Positions 3,393 to 3,803 of a DNA stretch of 64,000 nt are shown here, in pieces. The translations under genes were made by a program, and so were the position numbers. Position 1 is the stretch's first letter; each line of letters starts with the position of its first letter. Below the pieces are notes generated by a model. It was given only the letters and a program-made list of their open reading frames with translations. It was not told the DNA's origin and searched no databases. The DNA is from Escherichia coli (GTDB lineage Bacteria; Pseudomonadota; Gammaproteobacteria; Enterobacterales; Enterobacteriaceae): the NCBI RefSeq assembly GCF_003018255.1, contig NZ_CP027440.1; one strand, written 5' to 3'.

Positions 3393-3803
3393 ATGAAGTG
3401 GCAACAACGTGTTCGTGTCGCAACGGGTCTAAGTTGCTGGCAGATTATGTTGCATTTACTGGTAGTGGCGCTGCTGGTGGTGGGCTGGATGAGTAAGACT
3501 CTGGTTCACGTCGGCGTGGGATTATGCGCACTGTATTGTGTCACGGTAGTGATGATGCTGGTGTTTCAGCGCCACCCCGAGCAACGCTGGCGTGAGGTGG
3601 CAGACGTGCTGGAAGAGCTGACCACGACCTGGTATTTTGGCGCAGCGCTGATTGTGCTGTGGCTGTTGTCCCGCGTACTGGAAAACAACTTTTTGCTGGC
3701 GATTGCAGGGCTGGCAATCCTTGCTGGCCCGGCGGTAGTGTCTTTGCTGGCGAAAGATAAGAAGTTACATCACCTTACGTCTAAACATCGCGTACGCCGC
3801 TGA
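3393..3803 (+). CDS. ybhQ: Small inner membrane protein
   Basis: 136-aa hydrophobic ORF divergent from ybhP; 3' end overlaps ybhR 3' end. Confidence 0.8.

Follow-up and report, generated by a model that had tools for sequence, protein, structure and literature searches.

The convergent arrangement is the sole class of gene pair in which long overlaps have been accepted as real (Rogozin et al. 2002; Palleja et al. 2008). The conserved cases described in those studies consist of two real genes on opposite strands that share their 3′ ends and are kept across species; their most likely origin is that one gene lost its stop codon and its frame ran on into the neighbour. The ybhQ/ybhR pair of Escherichia coli resembles them in these respects. 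At 39 bp, however, it is shorter than the cases analysed there (over 60 bp), and one and the same junction recurs in many genera, while the published cases are mostly confined to very close species.

Other described systems resemble this locus in how its transcripts end and overlap. Dar and Sorek (2018) reported that Rho-terminated mRNAs end precisely, just past stable stem-loops with no run of uridines behind them. The ybhQ mRNA is similar, with a precise end a few nucleotides past a U-less stem-loop and Rho-dependent readthrough downstream; however, its stem-loop is coding sequence of the convergent partner, whereas those described in that study lie in 3′ UTRs. Convergent excludons (Sanmartin et al. 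2025) are likewise opposite-strand neighbours with overlapping transcripts, and ybhQ-ybhR is itself listed among them. Excludons are defined by mutually exclusive expression, whereas it is by transcript overlap alone that ybhQ-ybhR is likened to them, and its overlap includes the coding sequence of both genes rather than UTRs only. Finally, bidirectional intrinsic terminators share with this junction a palindromic, GC-rich stem between the transcripts of convergent genes, but here a U-tract is absent on both strands and the stem lies inside the translated region of ybhR.

The window analysed here is a 64,000-nt stretch of an E. coli genome (contig NZ_CP027440.1 of assembly GCF_003018255.1), in which the gene order runs ybhN-clsB-ybhP, ybhQ and then, on the opposite strand, ybhR-ybhS-ybhF-ybhG-cecR. 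The genes and their shared segment are as follows (window coordinates):

3393–3803, + strand: ybhQ coding sequence, encoding a 136-a.a. inner-membrane protein (PF11076), with the stop codon TGA at 3801–3803.
3765–4871, − strand: ybhR coding sequence, encoding a 368-a.a. ABC-2 permease, the last gene of cecR-ybhGFSR, with the stop codon TAA at 3765–3767 (TTA on the + strand).
3765–3803, both strands: dual-coding overlap of 39 bp, comprising ybhQ codons 125–136 plus stop and the last 12 codons of ybhR plus stop.
3783–3803, both strands: distal, nearly frozen half of the overlap, reading K-H-R-[V/I]-R-[R/H]-stop in ybhQ (+) and S-[A/V]-A-Y-A-M-F in ybhR (−), with a ybhR four-fold entropy of ≤0.27.

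An earlier note, made from the letters of this DNA, had described a 39-bp convergent overlap with gene ends at 3803 and 3765; the open reading frame list and the RefSeq annotation both confirm it, and the gene names it gave are correct. The RefSeq gene ends coincide with those of the open reading frame list in MG1655 (ybhQ 824630..825040; ybhR 825002..826108) and in a strain identical over the stretch. YbhQ matched the Pfam family YbhQ (PF11076) end to end (E 2e-73), and YbhR matched ABC-2 permease families (ABC2_membrane_3, E 4e-51). The stretch was found in 5423 of 5426 complete E. coli genomes, and in 5234 of the complete genomes carrying it the 79 nt at 3765–3843 were at least 99% identical to the window. 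MG1655 differs from the window by 7 SNPs in 901 bp, none of which falls within 3765–3843.

Genes on the same strand also overlap nearby, namely ybhN/clsB by 1 bp (1261), clsB/ybhP by 4 bp (2499–2502), ybhS/ybhF by 8 bp (6008–6015), ybhF/ybhG by 8 bp (7737–7744), and ybhG/cecR by 1 bp (8735). Short same-strand overlaps of this kind (1, 4, 8, 8, and 1 bp around ybhQ-ybhR) are typical of translational coupling.

The codons of ybhQ and ybhR lie in exact antisense register, with position 1 opposite position 3 and position 2 opposite position 2. The ybhQ stop TGA is, on the opposite strand, the Ser codon TCA of ybhR, and the ybhR stop TAA is the Leu125 codon TTA of ybhQ. With the frames so aligned, only a TTA, CTA, or TCA codon can place a stop on the antisense strand. 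Because few ybhR codons are of this type (14 of 368), the probability of a 12-codon run-in, had the genes once abutted, is ~0.63, as calculated from the frequency of stop-yielding codons in ybhR. The length of the overlap alone is unremarkable, and what goes beyond chance is its conservation.

Both gene ends were measured in 80 GTDB Enterobacteriaceae species loci with a YbhQ alignment. The 39-bp overlap was exact in 70 of these, and the same junction sequence occurred in four more (74/80 in total), where the ybhR frame is broken farther upstream in the assemblies concerned; ybhQ and ybhR did not overlap in five loci (gaps of 0–34 nt), and one was unreadable. The 39-bp state was present in Escherichia, Salmonella, Citrobacter, Enterobacter, Leclercia, Kluyvera, Yokenella, Siccibacter, Mangrovibacter, Cedecea, and others, with YbhQ identity as low as 59% among the loci that carry it. 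The earlier note had allowed that one of the two frames might end at a conserved earlier stop in homologues; in most homologues, neither does. Since the deepest branches of a YbhR neighbour-joining tree all overlap and the non-overlap lineages are nested among overlapping ones, the overlap is probably the older state, as judged from this single-protein tree.

A total of 817 YbhQ relatives were found, and the distant homologues of 121–130 a.a. have shorter tails. These distant homologues were tried and rejected as outgroups for the ancestral state: two lie on contigs too short for neighbours to be seen, and L084 has no ybhRSFG nearby. The L084 homologue (GCA_964016415.1, 3001–3387; 128 a.a., 40% identity) is flanked by ybhL and rhlE, with both ybhNOP and cecR-ybhGFSR absent nearby. 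Given that it sits without cecR-ybhGFSR, the location of ybhQ beside the efflux operon is not universal. In E. coli MS1266, ybhQ (locus L002, 1594–2005) is annotated as a frameshifted pseudogene, and the gene is evidently dispensable in some strains. Many database entries (P0002, P0029, and others) are variants of ~161 a.a. that are YbhQ-like over the first ~115–120 residues only.

In the five species without the overlap, ~45–75 nt are inserted exactly upstream of the complement of the ybhR stop codon, and this insert supplies ybhQ with a new tail and stop. Two types of insert were distinguished: type A in L042, L046, and L067, whose tails are mutually homologous (15/27 positions, p 0.001), and type B in two Pluralibacter loci. 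A tandem duplication of the overlapped segment was considered as the source, as the new tails look like the overlapped one by eye, and was rejected after local and stop-anchored DNA comparisons proved not significant (p mostly >0.1). A new GC-rich hairpin lies at or just past the ybhQ stop, as in L042 (3403–3436, GGCGGCATAATCGCCGCC) and L061 (3396–3415, GCACCGGCGCTAGCCGGTGC). The record for L042 is titled Chryseobacterium sp. 18061, but its ybhQ and ybhR are enterobacterial (73% and 89% identical to those of E. coli, respectively) and its contig is nearly identical to that of L046 (record titled Citrobacter sp. 18056); it looks as though the organism name is wrong or the assembly contaminated.

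Constraint on the overlap was assessed through the entropy of ybhR four-fold sites with a conserved amino acid (n = 153), measured over 66 distinct sequences. The gene mean was 1.12 bit, with 8% of the 153 sites below 0.3; the sites opposite ybhQ codons 133, 135, 136, and stop had entropies of 0.22, 0.27, 0, and 0, and the next three, directly beyond the ybhQ stop, returned 1.84, 1.31, and 1.40. The ybhQ stop occupied an identical position in all 66 sequences (TGA in 64, TAG in two) and, being fixed in place, pins the rare Ser codon TCA of ybhR. Third positions in ybhQ are set by first positions in ybhR, and the F-R-R-K tail of YbhR is conserved; residues 125–130 of YbhQ, in the proximal half of the overlap, are poorly conserved and weakly constrained. 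In the five non-overlap species, the same ybhR codons vary: where overlapping species have TCA, these read TCG, GCA, or GCG, and GCG is replaced by GCC or GCT. These species form a natural control, in which the synonymous constraint on ybhR is relaxed in the absence of the overlap. Because the opposing ybhR codons vary there, the comparison indicates that the YbhQ tail K-H-R-[V/I]-R-[R/H] (131–136) is under selection. The conservation of the overlapping end codons, to which the earlier note had pointed as a check, was thus found for ybhQ codons 131–136 and the stop, which are nearly frozen and opposite which the ybhR synonymous sites are held, and not for the loose codons 125–130.

The ends of the two transcripts have been mapped previously, and the following features lie around the junction:

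3811–3837, + strand: stem-loop GUGGCCGUUAU-CACCA-GUAGCGGCCAC, without a U-tract, 8 nt past the ybhQ stop and within ybhR codons.
3843 (MG1655 825080), + strand: dominant ybhQ Term-seq 3′ end (Adams et al. 2021), 40 nt past the stop and 6 nt past the stem.
~3945 (MG1655 825182), + strand: Rho termination region antisense to ybhR (Adams et al. 2021; Rho score 3.95, p 5e-7).
~3692 (MG1655 824929), − strand: Rho termination region downstream of ybhR, antisense to ybhQ (Adams et al. 2021; Rho score 3.85, p 2e-7).

In the supplementary tables of Adams et al. (2021), the dominant + strand end at 825080 is assigned to ybhQ as a primary end, lying antisense to ybhR, and was seen in two growth conditions (4708 and 3033 reads). 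The Rho regions represent readthrough after bicyclomycin, scored in 800-nt windows, so their positions are approximate, and at low read counts (tens). The offset between the window and MG1655 was derived from the annotated MG1655 genes and verified at every base. The excess of C over G downstream, as expected of a rut region, is weak, with 25 C and 19 G in 3838–3945 and 25 C and 11 G in 3804–3880, the stem included. The ybhQ 3′ end matches the pattern of Rho-terminated mRNAs given by Dar and Sorek (2018).

The earlier note held that the overlap leaves no room for terminators. There is indeed no intergenic DNA, but termination occurs within the partner open reading frame, as seen in the 3843 end and in the Rho regions on both strands. 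Because each transcript ends within the partner gene, the ybhQ and ybhR mRNAs are complementary over roughly 3692–3843 (~150 nt). Overlap of the two transcripts, which the note had supposed, is accordingly found in published data, comprising this 3′ end, the Rho regions at 3945 (+) and 3692 (−), and the excludon list.

We read the locus as a genuine, old tail-to-tail overlap in which both frames are used, the junction is frozen, and each transcript ends in the partner gene via Rho, and we put the probability of this reading at roughly 0.8. In the exact antisense register, each stop codon doubles as a sense codon of the partner, and the junction would be held in place because mutations in the distal 21 bp would harm one protein or the other, as its conservation suggests. 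With no intergenic DNA, either transcript terminates within the opposite gene. Going by the published mapping, ybhQ transcription enters ybhR antisense and is stopped by Rho within ~150 nt, and its mRNA would presumably be trimmed back to the steady-state end 6 nt past the U-tract-less hairpin of ybhR codons. Transcription of ybhGFSR enters ybhQ antisense and is likewise terminated by Rho. The complementary mRNAs (~3692–3843) could then interfere with one another. The annotated overlap is accordingly not an error and both protein tails are constrained; otherwise it matters little. It also illustrates how transcripts of convergent genes without intergenic DNA can end, with Rho acting inside the neighbour and a stem-loop of neighbour codons at the mRNA end. 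The overlap (annotation), the transcript overlap, and the 3′ end and Rho data (published tables) are already public; the present analysis contributes the evidence that the overlap is conserved across the family and constrained in both frames, and that the hairpin matches the mapped 3′ end.

An intrinsic or bidirectional terminator at the junction was ruled out on the absence of a U-tract: the stem at 3811–3837 is followed by AAACUAUUCCACAC, with no U-rich tract, and a terminator scan of the junction returned no terminator-like site, with no T run on either strand. No Rfam family matched within positions 3200–4400 at E values of up to 1. The hairpin itself is stable (−19.2 kcal/mol, z −3.1, in a 56-nt context on the + strand), and there is good support for its marking the 3′ end of ybhQ mRNA in E. 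coli.

Whether this hairpin is anything beyond a consequence of the protein it encodes is a separate matter. It may be a mere by-product of the YbhR amino-acid sequence that stalls 3′ exonucleases by chance and is unselected, an explanation we hold to be somewhat doubtful, though a substantial competitor. Synonymous recodings of the E. coli codons already gave −13.1 ± 3.6 kcal/mol, 7.7% of them as stable as the real hairpin (p = 0.077, not extreme), so the stem is partly a by-product of W-P codons lying opposite A-T-T codons. Covariation is also slight, with RNAalifold recovering just a 6-bp core and a covariation energy near nil, and the hairpin is still found in Pluralibacter, whose ybhQ stops ~50 nt farther upstream, as it is in four of the five non-overlap species altogether. 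Against this, four of the five stem four-fold sites have entropy ≤0.29, compared with 8% of sites below 0.3 gene-wide, whereas sites in the loop and flank are free to vary; pairing is retained in 95% of cells across 66 species, with compensatory changes at two pairs. From sequence comparison, maintenance of the hairpin by selection for marking the ybhQ 3′ end, beyond the coding constraint, is only suggestive. Wobble pairs had appeared to favour the + strand as the folding strand (95.2% vs. 89.1%), a reading that we rejected since it hinged on one terminal pair; with that pair left out (10 pairs), 94.7% of cells are paired on the + strand and 95.5% on the −, i.e., the strands are equal.

A second alternative is that selection maintains the overlap as a regulatory excludon, in which induction of ybhQ by envelope stress would reduce expression of ybhR/ybhGFSR, or vice versa, because RNA polymerases collide or RNase III cuts the duplex of the two mRNAs. 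The earlier note had similarly raised antisense interference between ybhQ and the efflux operon. In favour of a regulatory role, ybhQ-ybhR is one of the 165 convergent excludons that ExcludonFinder (Sanmartin et al. 2025) detected in half or more of 58 E. coli RNA-seq samples. The two genes also answer to different signals: in E. coli, overproducing sigmaE is reported to raise ybhQ expression 5-fold, and in Salmonella a ChIP peak of sigmaE has been published for the ybhP-ybhQ intergenic region, while ybhGFSR is an ABC efflux system with its own TetR-family regulator, CecR/YbiH. Given these separate signals, antisense coupling would be meaningful. The junction is moreover conserved family-wide, and the gaps in the non-overlap species are just 0–34 nt, so the transcripts would overlap there anyway. 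However, the two-reading-frame constraint alone accounts for the conservation, any pair with overlapping coding sequences necessarily scores as transcript overlap, and the published data show low expression of both genes, with read counts in the tens for the Rho windows. No report of reciprocal expression of ybhQ and ybhR was found in the searchable papers or supplements, and neither gene is named in the supplements on SMRT-Cappable-seq and transcriptional interference. We consider selection for such an excludon unlikely. It is more improbable still that the overlap and the ybhR-embedded hairpin together form a selected, family-wide antisense switch, in which sigmaE-induced ybhQ would trim or silence the 3′ end of the ybhGFSR mRNA, or induction of the pump would silence ybhQ. 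If true, such a switch would tie the YbhFSR ABC exporter to a membrane protein that is uncharacterised and induced by sigmaE.

That the overlap is an annotation artefact, with one frame ending earlier and the remainder a chance antisense run-on, is effectively refuted: although a 12-codon run-on is likely by chance (P ~0.63), YbhQ 125–130 are poorly conserved, and the distant homologues of 121–130 a.a. are shorter-tailed, the ybhQ stop keeps its position in 66/66 sequences with the rare TCA of ybhR fixed there, ybhR synonymous sites are frozen solely inside the overlap, and the F-R-R-K tail of YbhR is conserved.

Besides the 3′ end at 3843, Adams et al. (2021) recorded a + strand Term-seq end internal to the ybhQ open reading frame, at window position 3453 (MG1655 824690; 2172 reads). 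It lies 60 nt into ybhQ, at codon 21, and scored 4.9 as an intrinsic terminator and 0.6 for Rho; transcripts may thus be terminated prematurely or processed within ybhQ. Farther along the gene, at ~3707–3729 (+), we spotted by eye an imperfect 10-bp inverted repeat, GGGCTGGCAA-TCC-TTGCTGGCCC, which partially matches a + strand site of the terminator scan and lies near the − strand Rho region at 3692.
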